DNA of 64,000 nt from contig CACJNS010000003.1 of the NCBI GenBank assembly GCA_902594855.1, forward strand, positions 1,289 to 65,288, read 5' to 3'. A program made the position numbers and the translations under genes. Positions 974 to 12,146 of this stretch are shown piece by piece; the stretch's first letter is position 1; each line of letters starts with the position of its first letter. Source of the DNA: an uncultured SAR86 cluster bacterium (GTDB lineage: Bacteria > Pseudomonadota > Gammaproteobacteria > Magnimaribacterales > AG-339-G14). The notes beneath the pieces were generated by a model. It ran no database searches. It was not told where the DNA came from and was given only the letters and a program-made list of their open reading frames with translations.

Positions 974-2746
974 ATGGATACCAATCAAATCATACTTTCA
1001 GCCATACTTTTAGTAATGGTGGGAATGTTTATATGGGGAAGATATCGCTATGATGCAGTTGCGCTTACAAGTTTAGCGGTTTTAGTGGTGCTTGGATTTG
1101 TGCCTGCAAAAGAAGCATTCGTTGGCTTTGGCCATCCAGCTGTTATAACTGTCGCACTTGTATTGTTGATAAGTAAGGGCTTAGAAGCTTCAGGATTGAT
1201 AGGAAAAATTGGCAGCCTTCTTCAAAAAATTGCCAGCAGCGAATTTCAATTTCTTGTGATCTTGATGGGAATAGCGGTTGTTCTGTCTTCATTCATGAAC
1301 AATATCGGAGCTATGGCGATGCTTCTACCGGTTACTTTAGGAATATGCCAAAAAATGAGCTGGTCCCCTTCTAAATTTTTGATGCCTCTTGCTTTTGCAT
1401 CTATTTTAGGCGGAATGAATACTAAAATAGGAACACCTCCAAACATTATTATTTCTGAATTTAGAGATCAATATTCCGATAAAGGCTTTGAATTCTTTGA
1501 TTTTGCCTATGCTGGATTACCTGTAAGCATTGGTGGTTTGGTTTTCATAGCATTATTAGGATTCATACTTGTAAAAAATAGATCTGGAGAAAATGACTCT
1601 TCCTCTTTAGTGGATATTAATGAATATTTAGTGGAATTAGTAATAGATAAAGATAGTGAACTTATTGGTAAAAGAACCCAAGAGTTTAGGAAAGAATTAG
1701 GATCTGACATTGTACTTATTGGGTCTGTTAATGAGTCCTCAGATGCTAGAGAAATATTAAGTAATTTTGATGAATTAAAAGAATCACAAATATTGCTTTT
1801 AAAAATTAATCCTGAAGAAGTATCTGGTCTCCAAGAAAAATATGGACTATCCCTTAGAACAGAAATTAAAGATCTAGATTCAGGAAGTTTTGGTGAAATT
1901 GAAACTATGATTTCTCCTGGCTCTAGATTGATAGGAAGAACTATAGACTATTTTTCTACAATGGCAGGAAGACAAATGGCTATTTTAGGGCTTTGGAGAA
2001 AAGGAACAAATTTTCAAGGAAGTTTATCAAACGAGCACTTTAAATCTGGAGATGTATTATTAATTGCAACGAGGGAAGAACAAAAAGATACTAGCGAAAA
2101 AATGCAGGATCTAGGCCTTATGCCTTTGTGGCAAAGAGAACTAGATGTAATAAAAGATGACTCTAAAATTCTTTTATCGCTAGGTTTATTTTCATTTAGT
2201 TTACTTCTTGTTATCACAAATTTTTTAAATGTTGTCATTGCTTTTTTGCTATGTGTTTTAGCTTTTGTAGCCTCTAAATTACTAAAGCCAAATATGCTTT
2301 ACAGGCATATTGAATGGCCTGTCATTGTATTACTTGGGGCTATGATCCCAATTGGCGATGCATTGTATGACAGCGGCCTTACCAATATTCTTGCAACTGC
2401 TATAGCCACTCAATCAATTCAATTTGGTTTAGTAGGCACTTTAATTATTTTAATGGTTGCAACCATGTGTTTATCAGATGTCATTAATAATGCAGCTACA
2501 GCTGTTATCATGGGACCAATATCAGTAACCATAGCTAATCAGTTAGGCCACCCTACTGAACCTTTCTTGATGTGTGTTGCCATAGGTGCAAGCTGCGCTT
2601 TTCTTTCTCCAATAGGTCATCAATGCAATACTTTAGTGATGGGGCCTGGTAATTATAAATTTGGAGATTATTGGAAACTTGGATTGCCTTTGGAGCTTCT
2701 GATCATTGCGATATCAACTCCTTTGCTACTTATTTTTTGGTTCTAG
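974..2746 (+). CDS. SLC13/DASS-family (CitMHS-like) permease with TrkA-C domains
   Basis: Two SNN-type motifs (SSFMNN, SDVINN), IGTPPN and SPIGHQCN...GNYKFGDY; soluble central TrkA-C repeats. Confidence 0.9.
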   Translation: MDTNQIILSAILLVMVGMFIWGRYRYDAVALTSLAVLVVLGFVPAKEAFVGFGHPAVITVALVLLISKGLEASGLIGKIGSLLQKIASSEFQFLVILMGIAVVLSSFMNNIGAMAMLLPVTLGICQKMSWSPSKFLMPLAFASILGGMNTKIGTPPNIIISEFRDQYSDKGFEFFDFAYAGLPVSIGGLVFIALLGFILVKNRSGENDSSSLVDINEYLVELVIDKDSELIGKRTQEFRKELGSDIVLIGSVNESSDAREILSNFDELKESQILLLKINPEEVSGLQEKYGLSLRTEIKDLDSGSFGEIETMISPGSRLIGRTIDYFSTMAGRQMAILGLWRKGTNFQGSLSNEHFKSGDVLLIATREEQKDTSEKMQDLGLMPLWQRELDVIKDDSKILLSLGLFSFSLLLVITNFLNVVIAFLLCVLAFVASKLLKPNMLYRHIEWPVIVLLGAMIPIGDALYDSGLTNILATAIATQSIQFGLVGTLIILMVATMCLSDVINNAATAVIMGPISVTIANQLGHPTEPFLMCVAIGASCAFLSPIGHQCNTLVMGPGNYKFGDYWKLGLPLELLIIAISTPLLLIFWF

Positions 2747-2985
2747 TAACCCTGAATTATTGTTCCTCTTACAAAGAGTTCATAGTAGCGAGAGCAATTA
2801 TATTTTCTCAGCTTTATAAGCATATCAAGGTATTTTTGTTTATCTGCTTCTAAAGACGATTTGTGATCTAAATAACAAGCATCAAACTCATCCAAATCAT
2901 ACATAGAGTTTTTTACAACTTTTTCGTAAGTGCAAGAAAGTAAAGTAAGAGATATTAAAAGAACCAAATAGTTATTGATTCTCAT
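2743..2985 (-). CDS. Small hypothetical lipoprotein
   Basis: 80 aa, lipobox LLSC, two further Cys; start overlaps the 3' end of the channel gene. Confidence 0.6.
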   Translation of the reverse strand: MRINNYLVLLISLTLLSCTYEKVVKNSMYDLDEFDACYLDHKSSLEADKQKYLDMLIKLRKYNCSRYYELFVRGTIIQGY

Positions 2986-3697
2986 CTGCGCTTAATTGAC
3001 CGCTACTTGATTTCTTTGACATTACATCGACAATAATTCCAATGACCATGTTTAACATTATGACAGCATTCAAAAGAATAAAACTTATAAAGTAAATCCA
3101 AACCCAAGGGAAAACTTCAATAATATCTTTCATTACTGCTGCCCAGTCATCGTAGGTGGCAACCTGTGCAAGAGTTAGCATTGCTAAACCAATATTACCC
3201 CAATGCTCTGGGTCAGTAGTTCCAAAAACTAACGTACCTATAGCAGCCCATATATATATGAAAATGAACATTAGAAGCGCAACAAAGCCAACTCTTGGAA
3301 GAGTCTCAAATAAAGCATCAACAATTTTCTTTAATGCAGGCACGACTGTGATAATTCTCAGTACTCTTACTATTCTAAGTAACCTTGCTACAAAGGCTGT
3401 TTCTCCACCAGTAATAGGAATTAAGCTGACTGTCACAATTATGAAATCAAATATGTTCCATCCACTTTGAAAAAATTTAATTAAGGATCTTTCAGCGACA
3501 ATTCTTATTATTATCTCTATCAAAAAGAAAACTGTGATCGCAGTATCTAAGAAGTTCAAAATTCCTACATAGTCATCTGAAAGATCATAAGAACTTACTC
3601 CTGCGTAGATAGCAGAACCAATTATTACAAAGATGACTATACCGTTAAAAAAACTGCTGTTTCTGATCTTTAAGAAAAATTGAACTATTTGATTCAT
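2972..3697 (-). CDS. Voltage-gated cation channel, BacNav/NaChBac family (Ion_trans)
   Basis: Six TM segments, WNIFDF in S3, S4 RLLRIVRVLR, pore TLAQVATYDDW, S6 LNMVIGIIVD. Confidence 0.9.
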   Translation of the reverse strand: MNQIVQFFLKIRNSSFFNGIVIFVIIGSAIYAGVSSYDLSDDYVGILNFLDTAITVFFLIEIIIRIVAERSLIKFFQSGWNIFDFIIVTVSLIPITGGETAFVARLLRIVRVLRIITVVPALKKIVDALFETLPRVGFVALLMFIFIYIWAAIGTLVFGTTDPEHWGNIGLAMLTLAQVATYDDWAAVMKDIIEVFPWVWIYFISFILLNAVIMLNMVIGIIVDVMSKKSSSGQLSADENQ

Positions 3698-3729
3698 GTG
3701 CGGATTATATACTCAACTTGAAATAAGAG

Positions 3730-5052
3730 TTAATTATTTAAACAAAGATAAGAAAGGTTCAAACCAACATCTGTATTACTTCTAGAAAAAATATCTATGC
3801 TACTTCTATTATCGAAAGGTTTAACGAATATATTCATTGATAAGCAGTTTATATAAAGTCTAGAAAAGGTTAAATCAGAAGATTCATTTATATCTTTTCT
3901 AACCCCTAACGGACCATTAGGCGCAAGGTAGTTTTTTGTCGACCAATCATAATTGGTTGCCATTACCCAAGAATCAGGCAATGGCATGCGATAACTAAAA
4001 CCGAATCCCCATTGCCTAAAGGACTCAAATTTTTCATTTGCTTCATATTTATCGCTAAAAACATTCAAAGTCCAACTTGAATTATTATTAGGTAAAAAGA
4101 ATGTATTATTTACAAAAGTTCCGTAACGATAACCACTTTTTGCTTCTAGACCTATAAAGTTCCTTTTGTCTATATTGAAACCATAATCAAAATTTGATCC
4201 ATTTTCTAAAGTGCCTGAATGACTAACGCTAAAAGCATTTGATTCTAAAAGTGCTTCACCCGATAGGTATACCTGAATTCTGGTAAAACTGGGAGTGACA
4301 CTTGGACTTTTAAGAATTCCTAATCTACCTTCTTCCACCTCAAGTTTACTGTTAATTCCAAAAACTAAACTTCTTTGATCAAATTGAGTGAATCTTGATT
4401 GATAAGTAGTAGCCAGCGCTAAAAAGTAATTTATTGAATCTCCTCGAGGATTATTTAAGTTTTGAGTAAGTGAAACGTTATAATTAAATGATAATTTTGA
4501 GTCAGACTGAGGTTTAGAATCAGGACTCACTTCTAAGGGAAATCCTGCTATTTCAATGATATCTGCATCTATCCCAGCATTAGCATTTGTTGAGCTTGAA
4601 AATCCAAATGTCATTAATTGATTTACCTTCAAAGGTTTTTCTTGCTCTTCTATAGCAGAAAGAAAAGACTCAACTTTTGTAACTACTTCTTCTGGAGGAT
4701 CGTAATCTTTGACACTATCTAAATATAGTTTTGCTGGAGCGTAAGCTTCTAATCTGAAATATAGTACTCCTAGCTCTAATCTAATCCTCGCAAGGGTCGG
4801 ATCGTATATAAGCATTTGCTCAAAGACTCCAATTGCTGCCTCTAAATCACCCAATATGATGGATAAATTGGCATATTTGAATAAATTGCTTTGATTGGTT
4901 GGTTCTTCTAATAATTGATCAAAGATTAGTTGTCTTTCTTTTCTGATAGTTTCTAATTGCTCAGGATCAGATATAGTTGGTGGAACATTTTGCGAAGAAG
5001 CAAAAAAGGTCAAACCAAAGACAAATAGTAATAAAATATACTTACTAGACAT
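3730..5052 (-). CDS. TPR + outer-membrane beta-barrel protein (Slam/DUF560-like)
   Basis: Signal peptide, TPR region (AIGVFEQMLIYDPTLARIRLELGVLYF), then STNANAG and amphipathic beta-strands to the C-terminus. Confidence 0.7.
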   Translation of the reverse strand: MSSKYILLLFVFGLTFFASSQNVPPTISDPEQLETIRKERQLIFDQLLEEPTNQSNLFKYANLSIILGDLEAAIGVFEQMLIYDPTLARIRLELGVLYFRLEAYAPAKLYLDSVKDYDPPEEVVTKVESFLSAIEEQEKPLKVNQLMTFGFSSSTNANAGIDADIIEIAGFPLEVSPDSKPQSDSKLSFNYNVSLTQNLNNPRGDSINYFLALATTYQSRFTQFDQRSLVFGINSKLEVEEGRLGILKSPSVTPSFTRIQVYLSGEALLESNAFSVSHSGTLENGSNFDYGFNIDKRNFIGLEAKSGYRYGTFVNNTFFLPNNNSSWTLNVFSDKYEANEKFESFRQWGFGFSYRMPLPDSWVMATNYDWSTKNYLAPNGPLGVRKDINESSDLTFSRLYINCLSMNIFVKPFDNRSSIDIFSRSNTDVGLNLSYLCLNN

Positions 5053-5089
5053 GACAAAGCGTCAATTATATAGCTTTTAATAAACAAAA

Positions 5090-7273
5090 ATGAAGAACAT
5101 TCAAAAAAAATTGTTATTGCCAATGGCAATTTTAATTGGATTAATTCCTCTAGCTAATCCTTTGAACATTTTCGATGAATTAAGATTATTTGCATTCGAT
5201 ACTTTGCAACAAATAAATCCAAGAGAACCATTGGAAGATGATCCTGTGGTTATTATAGATATTGATGATGAATCTCTTAATAATCTTGGTCAATGGCCAT
5301 GGTCTAGAGATTTATTATCTAAATTAGTCCAGCAAACAGAACAAGCTCTTACAACATCATTCGATATCGTTTTTGCAGAAAGAGATAGAACTGGGAGTGA
5401 TGTTCTCACTGAGCAATATTCAGATAACTCGGAGTTAGTTAATGAGCTGAAGAAAATTAAACCTAACGACTTAGTTTTTGCTGAATCTATGCAAGCTCAT
5501 ACAACCGTAGTACTTGGAAGCGCACCTAACAATAAATTAATCAGTCAATCTATCAAACCTAAATTTGGTTTAATTATTCAAGGTGATACACCTAATGAAT
5601 TTTTACCAAATTATTCTGGTATGCAAAATAATCTGCCTTCATTGATTTCTTCTGCAGCGGGAGTTGGATCTATGAGTATTGGCGGAGATTCAAGCATTGT
5701 TAGAAGCTTACCAACTTTTGAAATAGTTAGTGGGCAGATCGTTCCCTCTCTGATGCTAGAAACTTTGAGAGTAGCAATAGGAGCAAGTACTTATCAAATA
5801 AAATCTTCTAATGCTTCAGGAGAACTTGCTTTTGGAGAGAGCACCGGAATTAATAACATTAAATTAGGAAATGTGATTGTACCAACTAATGCAAATGGAA
5901 ATTTATGGTTACATTCAACTTATACAGAAAATTTAAATGTTATTCCCGCCTTTAAAGTACTTAACAATACTTTCGATAGAGAGTACTTTGCTGGAAAAAT
6001 TGTCCTAGTTGGAACGAGCGCATCTGGCTTACTTGATATTAGAAACACATCTTTAGAGAAAGATATTCCAGGTGTAACAGTCATAGCTCAAGGAATTCAA
6101 CAAATTATAAATGGCGAGTTTTTAGTTAGACCAGATTGGATGGAAGGAGGAGAATTTATATTTGGATTATTTTTTTCTATTTTAATATGTTTAATCATTC
6201 AATATTTTGGCCCTACTGGAGGATTGATCACATTTCTAGTTGCAAATATGTCAAGTCTCTACGGTTCTTACTACGGATTTAACAATTTAGATTATTTAAT
6301 TGATCCTATATCTCCATTGGTAATATGCTTAACAAGTTATCTAATAATTACATTTTTTAATTTTTTATTTACTGAACTAGAACGAAGTAAGGTTAGGACT
6401 GCGTTTTCTCAATATTTAGCACCAGAAATGGTTTCTAGACTTGCTGAATCAAGTGAATCGTTAAAGCTAGGTGGAGAGAAGAAAAATATGACCTTTCTGT
6501 TTTCTGATATCAGAGGTTTTACAGCAATATCAGAAAGTTATAAATCTAATCCTGAAGAGCTAACGGAACTTATAAATAACCTCCTTACAGTGCTATCAAA
6601 TGAAATTTTAGATAACGCTGGCACTATTGATAAATATATGGGAGATTGCATTATGGCTTTTTGGAATGCACCCACAGATCAAGAAAATCATACCGATTTA
6701 GCTTTAAAAGCGTCTTTTGATATGGAGAAAGCGTTAGAGCAATTTAATATTGAGTTCCAAAAGCAAAAAGGTATGGAGTTAAAAATTGGTATTGGAATCA
6801 ATACAGGAGAATGTATTGTTGGAAATATGGGTTCTGAAAAAAGGTTTGATTATACGGTCTTAGGTGACCCTGTAAACCTTGCTTCAAGATTAGAAGGTCA
6901 ATCTGGAACTTATGGATTTCAGAGGATTCTTGGTCAAGAAACAGTGAATGCTCTTAAATCAAATGCAAATCTTTTCGAATTAGATCTGATTCAAGTAAAA
7001 GGAAAAAGTGAACCCGTAAAAATTTATACTTCTTTTGATAAATTCTCATTGAAAGATGAAAAATTATCTGAGTTCAGTAAAGATCATGAAGAATTTCTTC
7101 ATAATTACAGAAATCAACAATGGGATTTAGCTTTAAACTTTATTAAGAAATGGGAGCAACAAGTTACAGAGTTTGATTTATACTACGCTATTTTTAAAGA
7201 CAGAATTAAAGATATGAAGCTTAATTTAGCTGATCCAAATTGGAATGGAGCGTACGTTGCAACAACTAAGTAA
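5090..7273 (+). CDS. CHASE2-domain class III adenylate cyclase
   Basis: CHASE2 (IIDIDDESL, GQWPWSR), three TM helices, cyclase motifs FSDIRGFT, KYMGDCIM and DYTVLGDPVNLASRLE. The K/D pair indicates ATP specificity. Confidence 0.95.
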   Translation: MKNIQKKLLLPMAILIGLIPLANPLNIFDELRLFAFDTLQQINPREPLEDDPVVIIDIDDESLNNLGQWPWSRDLLSKLVQQTEQALTTSFDIVFAERDRTGSDVLTEQYSDNSELVNELKKIKPNDLVFAESMQAHTTVVLGSAPNNKLISQSIKPKFGLIIQGDTPNEFLPNYSGMQNNLPSLISSAAGVGSMSIGGDSSIVRSLPTFEIVSGQIVPSLMLETLRVAIGASTYQIKSSNASGELAFGESTGINNIKLGNVIVPTNANGNLWLHSTYTENLNVIPAFKVLNNTFDREYFAGKIVLVGTSASGLLDIRNTSLEKDIPGVTVIAQGIQQIINGEFLVRPDWMEGGEFIFGLFFSILICLIIQYFGPTGGLITFLVANMSSLYGSYYGFNNLDYLIDPISPLVICLTSYLIITFFNFLFTELERSKVRTAFSQYLAPEMVSRLAESSESLKLGGEKKNMTFLFSDIRGFTAISESYKSNPEELTELINNLLTVLSNEILDNAGTIDKYMGDCIMAFWNAPTDQENHTDLALKASFDMEKALEQFNIEFQKQKGMELKIGIGINTGECIVGNMGSEKRFDYTVLGDPVNLASRLEGQSGTYGFQRILGQETVNALKSNANLFELDLIQVKGKSEPVKIYTSFDKFSLKDEKLSEFSKDHEEFLHNYRNQQWDLALNFIKKWEQQVTEFDLYYAIFKDRIKDMKLNLADPNWNGAYVATTK

Positions 7274-7997
7274 ACTCCTCTTTATTACATTATTTTTGCC
7301 GTCAATGGCTATTTCTCAGACTATTGTGAACATAGAAGAGTTAAGAAATGAAGGTAAAGAAGGTTTTTTTGCTGGTCTTGGTTTTTCTTTGAATGCTTCA
7401 AGGGGTAACAGAGATAGAGACTATTATTCATTTGATCTAAGATTTGACTACAATCTTGATGATGTCGAAAATTTCATGATTCTAAGAAAATCTGAAAGGA
7501 AAATAAATCAAAACGTCACGGATATATCGCAACTCATTCATATAAGATCTGTCTTTGAGACATACAATCAGTACCATACTGAATTCTTTATCCAGTCAGC
7601 TAAAAATCCTTTTAGATTATTTAGAGAAAGAAACTTATTTGGTACCGGTTTAAGAATGATCATAGATGATCAAATGAGATTTGGAGCAGGCGTTATTTAT
7701 GAAGAGGAAACTGATTTAGAAGATTCAGTCACTGATACAACAAGATTCTCTCTTTATTTCCATGATAATTTTGAAATTGCTGAAAACGTTAACTTCAATA
7801 CAACTATTTATTATCAGCCCGATATATTGGATTTTAACGATTACAAAACAAGCTTCTTAATGGCTTTTAATTTTAAAGTTAATGAAAAATTTAGTATCAG
7901 CCTTCAGTACGATATTGCTTACGATTCGGAACCTATATTGAATGCCGTTGAGGATGATCAAGGATTAAGTACTAAATTCTCTTATTCCTTTAATTAA
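7245..7997 (+). CDS. DUF481-family outer-membrane beta-barrel
   Basis: Signal peptide, ASRGN near the N-terminus, YYQP, YDSEP and terminal FSYSF. Start may be the TTG at 7257 behind GGAG. Confidence 0.75.
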   Translation: MERTLQQLSKLLFITLFLPSMAISQTIVNIEELRNEGKEGFFAGLGFSLNASRGNRDRDYYSFDLRFDYNLDDVENFMILRKSERKINQNVTDISQLIHIRSVFETYNQYHTEFFIQSAKNPFRLFRERNLFGTGLRMIIDDQMRFGAGVIYEEETDLEDSVTDTTRFSLYFHDNFEIAENVNFNTTIYYQPDILDFNDYKTSFLMAFNFKVNEKFSISLQYDIAYDSEPILNAVEDDQGLSTKFSYSFN

Positions 7998-9007
7998 CCG
8001 GTTCTATCTAAACTTACTTTTTCAAGCTCCTCAAAAAGATGAGGATACTCTTCCATTAATTCTTCAAGGTCTTCTTTTGATAAAGAGAGTAGTTTAACTT
8101 CTTCTAGAGAGCTAATCGACGCATTACGCACTTCCTTGGAAAGAATTCCTTTTTCACCGAAATAGTCGCCCTGCCCCAAGGTAACAGGAGATTCTATTTC
8201 AACTTGCACCGAACCAAACTCAATGATGTACATGCAATCCGCCTCATCACCTTTTTCAATAATTTTTCTTTTAGCAGGATAAATCTCTGCAACCAACTTA
8301 TCGTTTATTTTGCTTAATGCTCCAATAGGCAACATAGAAAATAATGGAATGCTGGAAATTGTTTCCATCGTGATAAGAAAGTTTCTCTTTTGAATTTCTT
8401 CATAATAAGCAGATGCTAATATTGCTGCAGGTAATGCAAACATCCCGATACCTAAAAACATAGTTAGAGAAGTTAAAACCTGACCTAAAGGAGAAGATGG
8501 AGTTACGTCTCCATAACCTACTGTCGTTAAGGTTGCTATTCCAAACCACATTGAGTTAAGAATAGATCCAAAATATTCAGGATTAATATCCCTCTCAATA
8601 AAGTGAATTAAAGTAGAGAAAATCAACAGAACAGAAAAAACCATTATCTGAGACCCTAATAACGCTAATCGTTGGTTATACACTGTTCTCAGTAAGGTGT
8701 TTGTTGGTAACAACATCTTATGGTTACTGTAAATTGAATAAGCTCTGAAAATTCTTAATATTCTTAAATCGTAAAAACCAAAGAAAACATAATTAGCAAG
8801 AACTACAAAATCAAAAACTAACAAGAAAGAAAATCTTCGTTCAATAACAATCCTTAAAATGAACTCTGTCCCAAAAAAAATATACGAAGCTATAACAAAA
8901 ATATCAAAATAAATGTTTTCTGGAATAATTTTGCTTGAAGATAAAATCTGATCAAAAATATTTAATAAAATTAAAATACCAGCAATATTATTAATATATT
9001 TGATCAT
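7994..9007 (-). CDS. Cyclic-nucleotide-gated K+ channel (MloK1-like)
   Basis: K+ filter TTVGYGD and a C-terminal cNMP-binding domain (GDYFGE...RNASI). Confidence 0.92.
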   Translation of the reverse strand: MIKYINNIAGILILLNIFDQILSSSKIIPENIYFDIFVIASYIFFGTEFILRIVIERRFSFLLVFDFVVLANYVFFGFYDLRILRIFRAYSIYSNHKMLLPTNTLLRTVYNQRLALLGSQIMVFSVLLIFSTLIHFIERDINPEYFGSILNSMWFGIATLTTVGYGDVTPSSPLGQVLTSLTMFLGIGMFALPAAILASAYYEEIQKRNFLITMETISSIPLFSMLPIGALSKINDKLVAEIYPAKRKIIEKGDEADCMYIIEFGSVQVEIESPVTLGQGDYFGEKGILSKEVRNASISSLEEVKLLSLSKEDLEELMEEYPHLFEELEKVSLDRTG

Positions 9008-9053
9008 TTGGGTAAAACCTTGATTTGTATTTTATAACAATAATGTCTTAATC

Positions 9054-9084
9054 AAAAAAAACCCTGCTAATGCAGGGTTTTTTT
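9054..9084. terminator. Intrinsic terminator after TBDR-1 (potentially bidirectional)
   Basis: A-tract, CCCTGC-taat-GCAGGG, T-tract. Confidence 0.85.
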
Positions 9085-9098
9085 AATAAAGAATTTAA

Positions 9099-12000
9099 TT
9101 AAAAATTCCACCCAGCTCTTACACCGTATCTAGCTCTTTCTCTAGCCATAATTCTTTGATAATTACCTACTGCAGTACTTTCTAAGTTTCTGTAATAGAT
9201 ACTTTCATTATCAGTAATGTTTTGACCATAGAATTGAACGAACCATGAATCATCACTATCTGAGACAGTAATTTGTGCTCCTAATTCATCCCATCCTTCA
9301 AGATAATCACTAGCTAAATTGTAAACCCTGTTATATCTTTGACCTTGAATATAATAATCAAGACGATAGTTAATTTTAATTTCTCCAACGTCCTGCAGAT
9401 ATCCTATACCAAGTGAAATTTGACTTTCAGGATGATACAAGCTGTTTCCTGACAAATCAGTTTCCAGACCTTCACTGATGTCTGTTCCTGCCACTAAATC
9501 AAATCCATGAAGCTGAGCCAATACTCTTAGTGGATCGAAATCAACATTATTTCTTAACCTGTTACCTAATGATGGTAAATGTCCATCTGCAGGCATTGCT
9601 CCAGTAAATGGATTGAAATAACTCACAGGCGTGGGTTCACCAAAAGTTCTATCACCATGGTGTTCTATTGGATTAAAGAAAACTGCTTGAACTAGACCTA
9701 GACCATCTAAAGCAGGATTCAATGCAGCAATACCATCTGCAGGAGTGGTAGCTGCACCAAGAGTAGTGACTTCTTGCAAATAAGTTTGCCACATAGCTGC
9801 TAAAGCTGTTTTCTTAACAATATAAGTCTCAGATTGTTCGTCTTTCATAAGATGCCATTCTGCTCCACCACCAGAAAGTTGGAGATCTCTATTGATGACA
9901 TCAATGGCTTTTTCACCATCAGCAATAGAAGAATTGGTCAAACTGATTGAAGCATTGAATGATAATCCTGGAACATCAGGTGGGACAACTAAAAGTTCCG
10001 CTTCTAAACCGCTTATATCAACATCAATTCCTTCATTAATTGTAGTTCTATTAATGATTTTACCTATATGATAATTTTTAACTTGCGAAGCATAAGCAGA
10101 AACGTTAAATCTAATTCCTTGATCAGGGAACTCATTCTTAAATCCAACTTCTACATTCCATACTTCTGAATCTGGAAAACCTGTGGGAACACCAGCAAAA
10201 GCGCCTGGATCAAATCCAGGGTTAATTCCACCACCTTTAAAACCTTTAGAAAGCGATACATACATCATCGAATCTGAGTTAATGAAGTAATCAACAACGA
10301 ATCTTCCAGTAAATTTACTTGTCTCAAGTGTTGTATCAAAACCGGCTGCTTTATAAGCTTCACCAGGAGCGCTTAAACCTTCTCTGCCTGGAATACCAGC
10401 TGGGCAAAATGCACCGCCTGGGGGACAGAAAAGAGCCTCCCATGCAGCGGCACTAGGCACTTGACCGCTTGTAAGCATTCCGGCTAAAACATCGGTCATA
10501 AATCCTTTTTGATATCCAAATACATTAATAAAAGGATTGCTTGGCAAAGCTTCTTTAAAATCATCTGTATATCGAAGACCGAAGGTAATTTTTACATCAT
10601 CATTGGCTTGGTAATAGTATTCTCCAAATACTGCAGAAGATTCAATGGTATCTAAGTTTGCCGTTCTAAAGTGTGGAGCATATAACTGAATACCCAGAGC
10701 ATTTAATTGCGCTCCTACCAAAGCTGCTGCAGGCGCTTTCGTTAAAGCATCCAATCCAGATGCAACAACATCAGTATTTGTGTCACCTACATTTTTATAA
10801 TAATTCATTCCAAAAAGAAAATTATGAGGCCCATCAAAACCCGAGACCAATTTTAATTCGACTGAATCAGTAATTTGTTCACTCATAATTGCAAAAGCAC
10901 CAACAGGATTATTGACAGTATCTAAGATACAGCCTCCGAACCAACCCGCAGTATAATCTTCTACAGAACAAGCTGGATTAAATACATCTGACATAGTTCC
11001 TAACCCGCCTGGAGTTGCTGGCGAATCTAAAAATCTAAGAGTATCTAACTCAGGAGACTCCCAAGCTTCTCTTCTGTTGAAAGCTCGATCTTTTCTACTC
11101 GCCGCAACAGAAAGAAATAATTCATCAGAAATATCGTGATCAATTAAAATCTGAGTGAGGTATTCATCAATGGTATACATTGGAGTACCTCTGAGATTAA
11201 CTTGCCAGAATTGCTGCGGTGCACCAGACATATCTGTTATAGGAGTAAAGTCTAAGACGCCTTGTGCTACAAGCAGATTTTCAACAAATGTAGACATAGG
11301 ATTAGCTATTTCAAATTTTTGATTTTCTGGAGCAACCTGAGTACAGCCAACCACAAGCGATGGATCTCTGTCACACCATGAACCGGCAGATACATTCCTA
11401 GTTGAGTCCTCTAAAGCTGCTGAATGAACTACATTGATCGTTGTATCGTCTGACGCATCAAAAGTAAGAGTCAATCTATAGGCTGATTGATTTCTATTAT
11501 CTATATCTTGACCTTGTGAATATATGTTCTCAATTAAGGGATCTTGCCTAAGAGTATAAGTAGCAATTCTTAAAGCTACTGAATCATCTAAAGGGATATT
11601 GAATACTGATTCAGTACCAAATCTTCCATAGTCACCTAGATCAACCTTAGATGAACCGTAAAAACCTGATGTATCAGCTTTTGCAGTTATAAAATTTATT
11701 GAGCCACCGATAGCATTACCCCCATACAGAGTTCCTGCAGGCCCTCTAATAACTTCTACTCTTTCCATGTCGAAAATACCACCAGAAGCCAAATCTGTAG
11801 TTCCTACAATCATATCGTTAATATGAACTGCGACACCAGGTTCAGTAGTTCCTGAGGTAGCGCCATTTATCATTCCTCTGATTTCAAATTGACCCCCACC
11901 AACACCAATGTTTCCACTAAATCTTAGACCTGGTATAAACATTTGAAGATCTTTAGCTTCTTCAATTTGTCTCGCTAAAATATCGTCAGTATCCAAAGAA

Positions 12001-12146
12001 CTAACTGCTAAAGGAACTGATTGAAGGCTTTGCTCTTGTCTTTGAGCAGTAACTGTTACTTCTTCTAATCCATCTGAATCTTGCACAAAAGCAAAAGAAG
12101 ACGAAAGAAAAGAAAAAATTAAAAATAATTTAGATGAAAATTTCAT
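9099..12146 (-). CDS. TonB-dependent receptor (TBDR-1)
   Basis: Signal peptide, TonB box EEVTVTAQR, plug ERVEVIRGPAGTLYG, terminal YGVRAGWNF. Confidence 0.95.
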   Translation of the reverse strand: MKFSSKLFLIFSFLSSSFAFVQDSDGLEEVTVTAQRQEQSLQSVPLAVSSLDTDDILARQIEEAKDLQMFIPGLRFSGNIGVGGGQFEIRGMINGATSGTTEPGVAVHINDMIVGTTDLASGGIFDMERVEVIRGPAGTLYGGNAIGGSINFITAKADTSGFYGSSKVDLGDYGRFGTESVFNIPLDDSVALRIATYTLRQDPLIENIYSQGQDIDNRNQSAYRLTLTFDASDDTTINVVHSAALEDSTRNVSAGSWCDRDPSLVVGCTQVAPENQKFEIANPMSTFVENLLVAQGVLDFTPITDMSGAPQQFWQVNLRGTPMYTIDEYLTQILIDHDISDELFLSVAASRKDRAFNRREAWESPELDTLRFLDSPATPGGLGTMSDVFNPACSVEDYTAGWFGGCILDTVNNPVGAFAIMSEQITDSVELKLVSGFDGPHNFLFGMNYYKNVGDTNTDVVASGLDALTKAPAAALVGAQLNALGIQLYAPHFRTANLDTIESSAVFGEYYYQANDDVKITFGLRYTDDFKEALPSNPFINVFGYQKGFMTDVLAGMLTSGQVPSAAAWEALFCPPGGAFCPAGIPGREGLSAPGEAYKAAGFDTTLETSKFTGRFVVDYFINSDSMMYVSLSKGFKGGGINPGFDPGAFAGVPTGFPDSEVWNVEVGFKNEFPDQGIRFNVSAYASQVKNYHIGKIINRTTINEGIDVDISGLEAELLVVPPDVPGLSFNASISLTNSSIADGEKAIDVINRDLQLSGGGAEWHLMKDEQSETYIVKKTALAAMWQTYLQEVTTLGAATTPADGIAALNPALDGLGLVQAVFFNPIEHHGDRTFGEPTPVSYFNPFTGAMPADGHLPSLGNRLRNNVDFDPLRVLAQLHGFDLVAGTDISEGLETDLSGNSLYHPESQISLGIGYLQDVGEIKINYRLDYYIQGQRYNRVYNLASDYLEGWDELGAQITVSDSDDSWFVQFYGQNITDNESIYYRNLESTAVGNYQRIMARERARYGVRAGWNF

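Follow-up and report, generated by a model that had tools for sequence, protein, structure and literature searches.

The stretch of DNA analysed here, 64,000 nucleotides (nt) long and in the following called the window, stems from an uncultured SAR86 cluster bacterium (GCA_902594855.1, contig CACJNS010000003.1, positions 1,289-65,288) whose genome comprises 1,232,511 bases in 15 contigs and is 94% complete. Between positions 2743 and 9007 it holds six open reading frames (ORFs), which code for a small predicted lipoprotein, a voltage-gated-type channel of the BacNav family, a tetratricopeptide (TPR)/beta-barrel protein resembling Slam, a CHASE2-bearing class III adenylate cyclase, a DUF481 barrel and a K+ channel with a cyclic nucleotide monophosphate (cNMP)-binding domain (Table 1). 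An original prediction made from the letters of the window had named these genes and their domains, and both were borne out by the ORF check, by Pfam searches and, for the two outer-membrane barrels, by AlphaFold2 (AF2) models. The core of the cassette is formed by the Slam-like protein, the cyclase, the DUF481 protein and the K+ channel, and the pairing of cyclase and K+ channel is the main subject of this report.

The genes for the Slam-like protein and the cyclase are divergent, and since their start codons lie only 37 nt apart (5053-5089), the promoters of both must reside inside coding sequence or overlap. The start of the DUF481 gene overlaps the 3' end of the cyclase gene by 29 nt, which makes it probable that the two are co-transcribed. 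A scan of positions 2500-9300 for promoters and terminators yielded 26 promoter-like sites as against 30.6 +/- 6.1 in shuffled sequences and is thus uninformative on operons. A TATAAT just upstream of the BacNav start was not counted as promoter evidence. The G+C content of the locus, about 31-35%, is the same as that of its surroundings. Four RNA-library runs, all from the same study, gave contigs that match 25-29 of 30 bins with 92-99% likeness and span the cyclase/DUF481 junction as well as the divergent Slam-like/cyclase gap; as neither strand nor level nor a single transcript can be read from them, and DNA is a possible source, they give a weak hint that the locus is expressed.

Table 1. 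Genes of the locus and its flanks, with an example of the MscS gene found in related cassettes (positions in the window unless a locus is named)
Feature	Position	Strand	Properties
Predicted lipoprotein	2743-2985	-	80 aa; signal peptide ending in lipobox-like LLSC; peripheral
BacNav-family channel	2972-3697	-	241 aa; Pfam Ion_trans E 4.5e-43; peripheral, genus-specific neighbour
Slam-like TPR/14-strand outer-membrane barrel (predicted)	3730-5052	-	440 aa; TPR_19 E 6.6e-6; core
CHASE2 class III adenylate cyclase	5090-7273	+	727 aa; CHASE2 E 8.4e-42, Guanylate_cyc E 2.3e-22; core
DUF481 12-strand outer-membrane barrel (predicted)	7245-7997	+	250 aa; DUF481 (PF04338) E 2.3e-14; core
MloK1-type cNMP-gated K+ channel (predicted)	7994-9007	-	337 aa; Ion_trans E 1.5e-13, Ion_trans_2 E 1.8e-15, cNMP_binding E 1.4e-15; core
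DASS/CitMHS transporter with TrkA_C domains	974-2746	+	CitMHS E 3.7e-75, TrkA_C E 1e-6; flank
TonB-dependent receptor	9099-12146		flank on the other side
MscS gene (example)	L017:10800-11897	+	equivalents in L018, L019, L023, L024, L030-L038

Six-frame searches of the whole genome for the protein families in question revealed how exclusive this arrangement is. The class III cyclase family (PF00211) has a single match in the genome, the cyclase of the window, and the cNMP-binding domain (PF00027) likewise has a single match, the K+ channel, so that cyclic AMP (cAMP) has one detectable maker and one detectable reader in this genome, and the two are neighbours. A search for further cNMP-binding proteins, which the original prediction had proposed, therefore turned up none. 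The K+ channel is also the sole match of PF07885 (Ion_trans_2) and with it the one K+-channel pore that was detected, the two Ion_trans proteins of the genome both belong to this locus, and DUF481 is present in single copy; the K+ uptake protein TrkH is encoded elsewhere. The models HTH_Crp_2 and GAF_2, as well as those for class I cyclases and CYTH, found no match in this 94% complete genome. The earlier observation that no CRP-type regulator or phosphodiesterase lies at the locus thus holds genome-wide as far as the HTH_Crp_2, GAF_2 and CpdA-type models are concerned. The chance of finding three unique genes in one interval of this size amounts to 3 x (6265/1232511)^2, about 8e-5. Hence the cyclase, the cNMP-binding domain and the Ion_trans proteins cluster within 6.3 kb of 1.23 Mb more closely than by chance.

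The same linkage was found among relatives. In a panel of 41 genomes of the order, which consisted of the window's own, 15 further genomes of the same genus (g1), nine of the same family and 16 of other families, the cyclase is present in 17, and the K+ channel occurs in the same 17, always sharing a contig with the cyclase and lying no more than about 2 kb from it. These cassette-bearing genomes are 12 of the 15 of g1 plus the window's own, all three of g3 and one of three of g10. PF00211 matches one protein in each of the 17 genomes and in no other, and each time this is the cassette cyclase. PF00027 is found in 19 genomes; the 17 with the cassette have exactly one match, the channel, while the two extra matches (G025, 242 aa; G039, 963 aa) are different proteins in genomes that lack PF00211. 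No class I cyclase was detected in any of the 41 genomes. DUF481 occurs in 18 genomes, i.e. in the 17 cassette genomes and in G026, and the Slam-like gene in 17, namely in 16 cassette genomes and, as a fragment at a contig end, in G014; it was missed in G004, which is 60% complete. Three g1 genomes, with a completeness of 71-87%, lack the cassette, and since the contig of G014 starts inside the Slam-like gene, at least this absence is an assembly break. The originally claimed pairing of a presumed cAMP-generating cyclase with a cNMP-gated K+ channel therefore holds, and it is a dedicated one, with one copy of each in the same genomes.

A wider scan, in which an alignment of the K+ channel was run against one genome per species, gave 65 loci. 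Among the 18 loci whose channel shares at least 52% identity with that of the window, 12 (L023, L024, L030-L039) carry both the cyclase and DUF481 within 6 kb, and 11 of these 12 also have the Slam-like gene, which runs off the contig in L035. The locus L040 is only 2.6 kb long. In L030, L031 and L034 the genes are reordered (DUF481-MscS-channel, then the Slam-like gene and the cyclase), with the same membership. The cassette thus stays clustered through rearrangement. In addition, the channel, the cyclase and DUF481 share their history: over 15 loci their distance matrices correlate with one another (Spearman r of 0.59, 0.79 and 0.63, with a Mantel p of 5e-4 in every case). The 47 more distant loci (L041-L087) have a cyclase only at L071, with three cyclase-domain ORFs, and at L075, with fragments. 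The record titles are not fully reliable, as L035 and L036 are nearly identical but bear the titles Marinovum and Gammaproteobacteria, respectively.

The cassette can also disappear as a block. In G034 the flanking genes are 83-90% identical to those of its congener G031, and a single deletion of about 12 kb has taken the first 58 codons of the BacNav gene, a gene for a 2311-aa cadherin-repeat protein, and the genes for the Slam-like protein, the cyclase, the DUF481 protein and the K+ channel, so that a TauD-like gene now abuts the BacNav remnant (residues 59-244; L112:3894-5283). The cassette is therefore dispensable and was lost in one step. As a separate observation, L075:10001-14153 has no full ORFs of the cassette but only pieces of its four core genes, that of the cyclase covering residues 570-727; here the cassette may be decaying.

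The cyclase has an N-terminal membrane helix, a periplasmic CHASE2 domain (about residues 25-350), three more membrane helices, a catalytic domain (about 460-650) and a conserved C-terminal extension. PF05226 (CHASE2) spans residues 24-364, and the hydrophobic stretches before and after it were read from the sequence by eye. Across 15 orthologues with 55-60% identity the periplasmic part is strongly conserved, and D473, K515, D519, N571, T/S572, N596 and R600 are kept in all 15. By the usual assignment of roles in class III cyclases, D473 and D519 are the metal aspartates, K515 is the substrate lysine, position 572 is threonine or serine, and N596 and R600 form the transition-state Asn/Arg pair; lysine together with threonine is the ATP-type pair of class IIIb cyclases. 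Because the catalytic and the substrate-specifying residues are intact, we infer that the enzyme makes cAMP from ATP.

The K+ channel has six transmembrane helices (6TM) and the K+ selectivity filter TTVGYGDV, which is invariant in five of five orthologues (55-62% identity), as are residues G284, E285, R294 and A296 of the phosphate-binding cassette. Its best match in the PDB is MloK1 (E 6.3e-44), residues 105-337 aligning with MloK1 118-350 at 39% similarity. The alignment is colinear to the very C-terminus without a large gap, and the cNMP domain is joined to S6 without a long C-linker. From its sequence, the channel can be proposed as the candidate effector of the cAMP signal.

Taken together, we regard it as likely that the cassette constitutes a self-contained cAMP circuit with an ion channel, rather than a transcription factor, as its output. 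The CHASE2 cyclase would read some state of the periplasm or outer membrane, and the co-inherited Slam-like and DUF481 barrels would probably take part in sensing. The cyclase would then convert ATP to cAMP, as its intact residues suggest, and cAMP would bind the C-terminal domain of the channel and open the K+-selective pore, for which the homology to MloK1 and the conserved binding residues argue. As a consequence, K+ flux and membrane potential would change rapidly. If external K+ is taken as about 10 mM and internal K+ as a few hundred mM, the K+ equilibrium potential is roughly -80 to -95 mV, which is less negative than the typical bacterial membrane potential. Opening of the channel could therefore admit K+ and depolarise the cell instead of hyperpolarising it; either sign is possible. 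The link from cyclase to K+ channel, which is the central part of the original prediction, is strongly supported, and that prediction as a whole is partly supported.

Several points weigh against this reading. The 17 positive genomes are kin from three genera, and the number of independent events is accordingly small; moreover, completeness is 94% for the window's genome and falls below 90% in 14 of the 41 relatives. CpdA-type phosphodiesterases had zero matches in the genome, other phosphodiesterase families not having been searched, and removal of the signal is unexplained. cAMP receptors of another, unrecognised fold may exist. The Slam-like protein may export a cargo rather than sense, and DUF481 may serve cation channels rather than sensing, because G026, which lacks both the cyclase and the K+ channel, has a DUF481 gene (E 6.5e-16) directly after a Nav-like gene with 40% identity and the filter TMSSWE (L110:4061-5520). 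Finally, the five loci L025-L029, titled Paracoccaceae or Rhodobacteraceae, have no CHASE2 cyclase within 10 kb, and four of the five have no cyclase in the locus. The K+ channel can thus exist apart from the CHASE2 cyclase.

The channels of L025-L029 share 62-63% identity with that of the window and nest inside the clade of the window's family (tree support 99/99), so that the channel gene alone seems to have been transferred to the Paracoccaceae-titled genomes. These genomes carry one to five other class III cyclases. In G044 the sole class III cyclase is a cyclase-TPR protein of a different type (L028:6957-8699), located 1.3 kb from the transferred channel. The local hidden Markov model for cyclases that was run over the 65 loci is narrow and may miss divergent cyclases; that of L028 was found only at E 1e-5.

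In most relatives outside g1 the cassette includes a further channel gene, which codes for 365 aa and is assigned by Pfam to the MscS family. Its place is between the DUF481 and K+ channel genes in g3, L023, L024, L030 and L032-L037, and next to the DASS gene in L038, where it has been relocated. The cassettes of g1 and of G031/L039 lack it; in the genome of the window the orthologue (63% identity) is found at G000:C1:10894-11970, among unrelated genes. In L031 the MscS gene is split into two overlapping frames (L031:8813-9897; tblastn segments 1-221 and 211-363), which could be a frameshift or an assembly error. Another genome without cyclase and K+ channel, G039, has a Nav-like gene (filter TLSSWE) one gene away from MscS (L111:4672-7243). 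Since most versions of the cassette encode MscS, and since DUF481, MscS and tetrameric cation channels recur together without the cyclase, the most likely physiological theme is ion, osmotic or energetic homeostasis of the envelope. These points speak for homeostasis no less than for a sensory cascade like that of animals. The MscS genes, the Slam relationship discussed below and the occurrence of DUF481 beside a Nav-like channel without a cyclase had been absent from the original prediction.

One could go further and propose that the genes share nothing more than this ion or osmotic theme, in which case the cyclase would signal elsewhere and the nucleotide domain of the channel would be constitutively occupied, vestigial or devoted to another ligand. 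MscS, the TrkA_C-bearing DASS transporter and BacNav do recur around the locus, DUF481 and MscS stand near Nav-like channels in the cyclase-free G026 and G039, and the channel occurs without a CHASE2 cyclase in the Paracoccaceae-titled genomes. Yet cyclase and channel cNMP domain are present one-to-one in 17 of 17 genomes, and in none of the other 24 was one detected without its partner. The phosphate-binding cassette, moreover, is invariant, and a genome of 1.2 Mb would hardly maintain a cyclase that has no receptor. We therefore hold this explanation to be decidedly improbable, and retain the circuit in which the cyclase acts on the K+ channel.

The BacNav-family channel is of the one-domain 6TM type, with four S4 arginines (RLLRIVRVLR) and the filter TYDDWAA. 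Its best single-domain match in the PDB is 4dxw (E 3e-61), and domain II of Cav3 aligns TQEDW to TYDDW. TYDDW is kept in eight of eight aligned orthologues (63-98% identity; g1, g3, G031 and G028) and in 116 of the best 120 of 2719 homologue clusters, the other four not being caught by the pattern. A large clade of one-domain voltage-gated channels, most of it marine, is characterised by a filter of the form TYDDW(A/G)(A/N/M). This filter differs from the Na+-selective TLESW type, in which position 4 is neutral, by Asp at positions 3 and 4. According to the available text of two reports, Asp at position 4 renders NavAb and NaChBac Ca2+-selective, whereas NavPp is a Ca2+-blocked Na+ channel (PMC7041947, PMC10120453). 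The opposite effect of this residue in different backbones leaves the label 'possibly Ca2+' open for the TYDDW channel. With the family members CavAb (TLDDWSD), the native CavMr (TLEGWVD) and NavPp (TLEDWTD) it shares the one-domain 6TM build and the acidic filter positions 3 and 4, but its native TYDDW(A/G)(A/N/M) filter lacks the position-7 Asp of the engineered CavAb. TYDDW is not among the filters discussed in the portions of PMC7041947 and PMC10120453 available.

As to its genomic position, the BacNav gene adjoins the cassette only in g1, where it follows the Slam-like gene downstream, after 32 nt and on the same strand. It is 7 kb away from the cassette in G031; among the g3 genomes, G017 has 168 kb between the two, and G020 and G023 have them on different contigs. 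An intact BacNav gene is present in G028, a genome with neither cyclase nor K+ channel, and the gene is absent within 10 kb from all 65 loci around relatives of the K+ channel. BacNav is therefore a genus-specific neighbour and not part of the cassette core. Accordingly, the proposed synteny of the cyclase with both channels holds for the K+ channel and fails for BacNav, and the last step of the originally proposed cascade, in which the K+ channel gates BacNav, is not supported.

That cascade would run in full from a cue via cAMP to a K+ channel that shifts the membrane potential and so lets BacNav admit Ca2+ (or Na+), as in animal sensory cells and sperm. The adjacency of the BacNav and Slam-like genes in g1 speaks for it, as do the occurrence of a TYDDW-type BacNav somewhere in 17 of 17 cassette genomes, its moderate distance from the cassette in G031, the truncation of BacNav by the G034 deletion, the four S4 arginines and the acidic filter, given the Ca2+ selectivity that position-4 Asp confers on canonical BacNavs in the accessible parts of PMC7041947 and PMC10120453. 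All this is offset by the distant BacNav genes of g3, the intact BacNav of G028, the 65 loci without BacNav nearby, the fact that in most lineages the extra channel gene of the cassette is MscS and not BacNav, and the opposite results that the same filter rule gave in different backbones, as far as the excerpts of these reports go. We consider the full cascade unlikely.

Two side observations concern the surroundings of the BacNav gene. A giant ORF adjoins it in two genera, with 2311 aa and eight cadherin repeats in G031 (L020:3273-10208) and with 2391 aa in G017 (L022:172-7347); in G031 the cadherin-repeat gene separates BacNav from the cassette. The gene for the 80-aa lipoprotein overlaps the 3' end of the BacNav gene by 14 nt. 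The lipoprotein has no Pfam match, and tblastn gave matches only in L113 and L114 of the same genus and none in the g3 or G031 loci. The DASS transporter gene neighbours the cassette in g1, in g3 and in nine other loci, but not always on the same side: in g3, L023, L024, L032, L033, L035-L038 and L040 it adjoins the K+ channel side. It was not seen at L030, L031, L034, L039 and L020. It is a frequent neighbour, and its membership of the cassette is not established. An ORF of about 210 aa without a Pfam match lies between the cyclase and the Slam-like gene at L036:15067-15705 and L039:13952-14578.

To the two outer-membrane barrels, sequence profiles and structure prediction were applied. The AF2 model of the Slam-like protein, computed from a 12-sequence alignment (pLDDT, a per-residue confidence score, 85.3), predicts TPR helices at residues 30-137 followed by 14 long strands; the protein has a signal peptide. 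The top Foldseek match was BcsC (E 4.7e-9); 14-strand porins came next, and PelBC and PgaA were among the other matches. VIA-align gave CymA, a 14-strand barrel, with Z 22.1 (root-mean-square deviation 3.4, 273 aligned) and OmpG with Z 19.5. PF04575 (SlipAM) matched none of 12 sequences, i.e. the window protein and 11 orthologues, at E<=1, and TPR_Slam matched six of the 12 weakly (best E 0.0079). A profile search returned 2963 representative proteins at E<=1e-3. Thirty distant, near-full-length relatives were picked from 150 listed of these 2963 and scanned; 13 of them match PF04575, 11 above the 22-bit cut-off, and eight match TPR_Slam. On account of its architecture and this transitive homology, the 440-aa protein is filed as a putative divergent branch of the Slam/type XI secretion system (TXISS; DUF560) superfamily, its membership being short of proven. 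Of 623 homologues, the best 120 are all close marine orthologues, named only 'TPR repeat protein' or 'porin family protein'. A Slam cargo would be encoded by an adjacent gene, as a lipoprotein or a soluble protein that ends in an 8-strand barrel. No conserved candidate for such a cargo was seen at the locus, to which this inspection was confined, the rest of the genome not being searched; the 80-aa lipoprotein is genus-specific and too short for that architecture.

For the DUF481 protein, AF2 predicts a 12-strand barrel (pLDDT 79.8). Foldseek retrieved NanC (E 3.2e-8) and also OmpG, FapF, PcoB and KdgM, and the DUF481 profile had no match among PDB sequences at E<=1. The family (TC 1.B.75) is entered as a putative 12-strand pore protein in the available portion of PMC4827864. 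Short peptides are strongly conserved just after the signal peptides of both barrels, QNVPP..DP in the Slam-like protein and IVNIE..R.EG..GF in the DUF481 protein; the latter is modelled at low confidence, and a similar motif is kept in the DUF481 protein of G026. Going by this conservation, these N-terminal peptides may be interaction segments. A complex prediction for the CHASE2 domain (25-350) with the TPR domain (23-140) scored 0.01 against a mark of 0.32.

How CHASE2 cyclases are employed elsewhere was judged from a sample of the class, in which CHASE2 was found in 160 of 301 genomes, a tally that includes four genomes flagged as unpublished (G303, G313, G159 and G082), on which nothing else in this report depends. 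For 20 full-length CHASE2 cyclases (28-33% identity) the two nearest neighbours on each side were surveyed. Three adjoin cNMP-binding effectors, one each with rhodanese, patatin and GGDEF-EAL; one adjoins a GAF-HD protein, four are near FecR-domain proteins, one is near a ShlB/POTRA barrel, and three are near a CHASE2 Ser/Thr kinase with PP2C and FHA. None of the 20 has a K+ channel, BacNav or DUF481 protein beside it. From these neighbourhoods it follows that a cyclase with an adjacent cNMP effector is a usual design, and that a channel effector together with these barrels is an unusual variant.

A more far-reaching possibility is a trans-envelope, transcription-free device, in which the barrels would report an event at the surface or envelope to the CHASE2 cyclase, cAMP would serve solely as ligand of the channel, and the K+ current, with MscS or a Ca2+-permeable TYDDW BacNav, would set voltage and ion content. 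We regard this extended picture as speculative and on the whole improbable. If it were true, electrical signalling would be the main fast response of these non-motile, very abundant small-genome marine bacteria, and the TYDDW clade would be a second kind of native prokaryotic Ca2+ channel.

The more restricted circuit of cyclase and K+ channel already has consequences. Across this order of streamlined marine bacteria, cAMP signalling, where present, comes down to one cyclase and one receptor, the receptor being a channel. The circuit shows a route by which a regulator-poor cell could respond with no transcription involved. It also connects CHASE2 sensing with the divergent Slam/DUF560 branch and DUF481, both of them uncharacterised families of the outer membrane. 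The bacterial cyclic nucleotide-gated (CNG) K+ channels MloK1, SthK and LliK are well-studied structural models, and the comparative genomics presented here supplies a candidate upstream cyclase. The question of what prokaryotic CNG channels do thus becomes directly testable with two small genes. No description of a cyclase linked to a bacterial CNG K+ channel by genomic context was found in the literature, subscription journals and supplements lying outside the search. In those parts of the literature at hand, an upstream cyclase or a physiological role is assigned to none of the three channels, and the available text of one report names neither a natural upstream cyclase nor a physiological role for MloK1 or SthK (PMC5987880).

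The cassette invites comparison with Pycsar anti-phage systems, with which it shares a class III-like cyclase beside a membrane effector with a cNMP-binding domain. By analogy, the cyclase would detect phage and the cyclic nucleotide would open an effector that collapses the membrane potential in an abortive infection. PADLOC models for PycC indeed recognise the cyclase domain, with E 2.6e-31 at best, and the cNMP domain of the channel is matched by models for PycC and PycTIR (E 6.5e-9 to 2.5e-6); the two-part logic is the same, and the distribution is patchy with block loss. These matches, however, are only at the level of domains common to all class III cyclases and cNMP-binding proteins. 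The substrate lysine and Thr/Ser are of what we take to be the ATP-using type, and the cassette has a CHASE2 sensor domain and, as effector, a canonical K+-selective 6TM channel instead of PycTM or TIR. In addition, the synteny of the locus with housekeeping neighbours is stable genus-wide at 84-91% cyclase identity, and the window annotation shows neither mobile nor defence genes beside it. A role as a Pycsar-like system is thus very improbable, and the cAMP circuit proposed above remains our preferred reading.

A parallel for the input side is the CyaD1/CyaD2/CyaK-NsrA-Clr system of Sinorhizobium meliloti, in which, according to the available text, CHASE2 class III cyclases need an outer-membrane beta-barrel and cAMP rises (PMC13001267, PMC7529298). 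The output there is the CRP-type Clr, whereas the SAR86 genome has no CRP-type HTH match and its sole detected receptor is the K+ channel. By its description in these sources, NsrA is also set apart from the two barrels of the cassette, being about 1200 aa long with its barrel at 600-1200 as compared to barrel proteins of 440 and 250 aa. With Slam/TXISS proteins the 440-aa protein would share a periplasmic TPR domain of roughly 110-140 aa and a 14-strand barrel, as outlined in the accessible part of PMC8406197; it differs in that its partner in the cassette is a cyclase.

On the output side, the best relative of solved structure is MloK1 of Mesorhizobium loti (PDB 2zd9/3beh/6eo1). Both channels have six transmembrane helices, a GYGD filter, a short link from S6 to the cyclic nucleotide-binding domain and a phosphate-binding cassette of the type FGE...R.A, and the channel of the window has a C-terminal Arg at the position of MloK1 R348, a residue that presumably has a functional role. 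The two differ in the filter, which is TSTTGYGD-like in MloK1 and TTVGYGD in the window, and in the genetic tie of the window channel to one cyclase. The guanylate cyclase/CNGK/CatSper cascade of sea-urchin sperm and the RhGC/CNG cascade of Blastocladiella follow, as we assume, the same logic as the SAR86 circuit. That two bacterial parts suffice for a path from cyclase via cyclic nucleotide and K+-selective CNG channel to a voltage change is illustrated by PAC-K, in which, according to the available text, co-expression of the bacterial cyclase bPAC with the bacterial CNG K+ channel SthK gives a stimulus-gated K+ current (PMC6218482). Whereas these systems are engineered or eukaryotic, the SAR86 cassette is a natural bacterial gene cassette with outer-membrane components.

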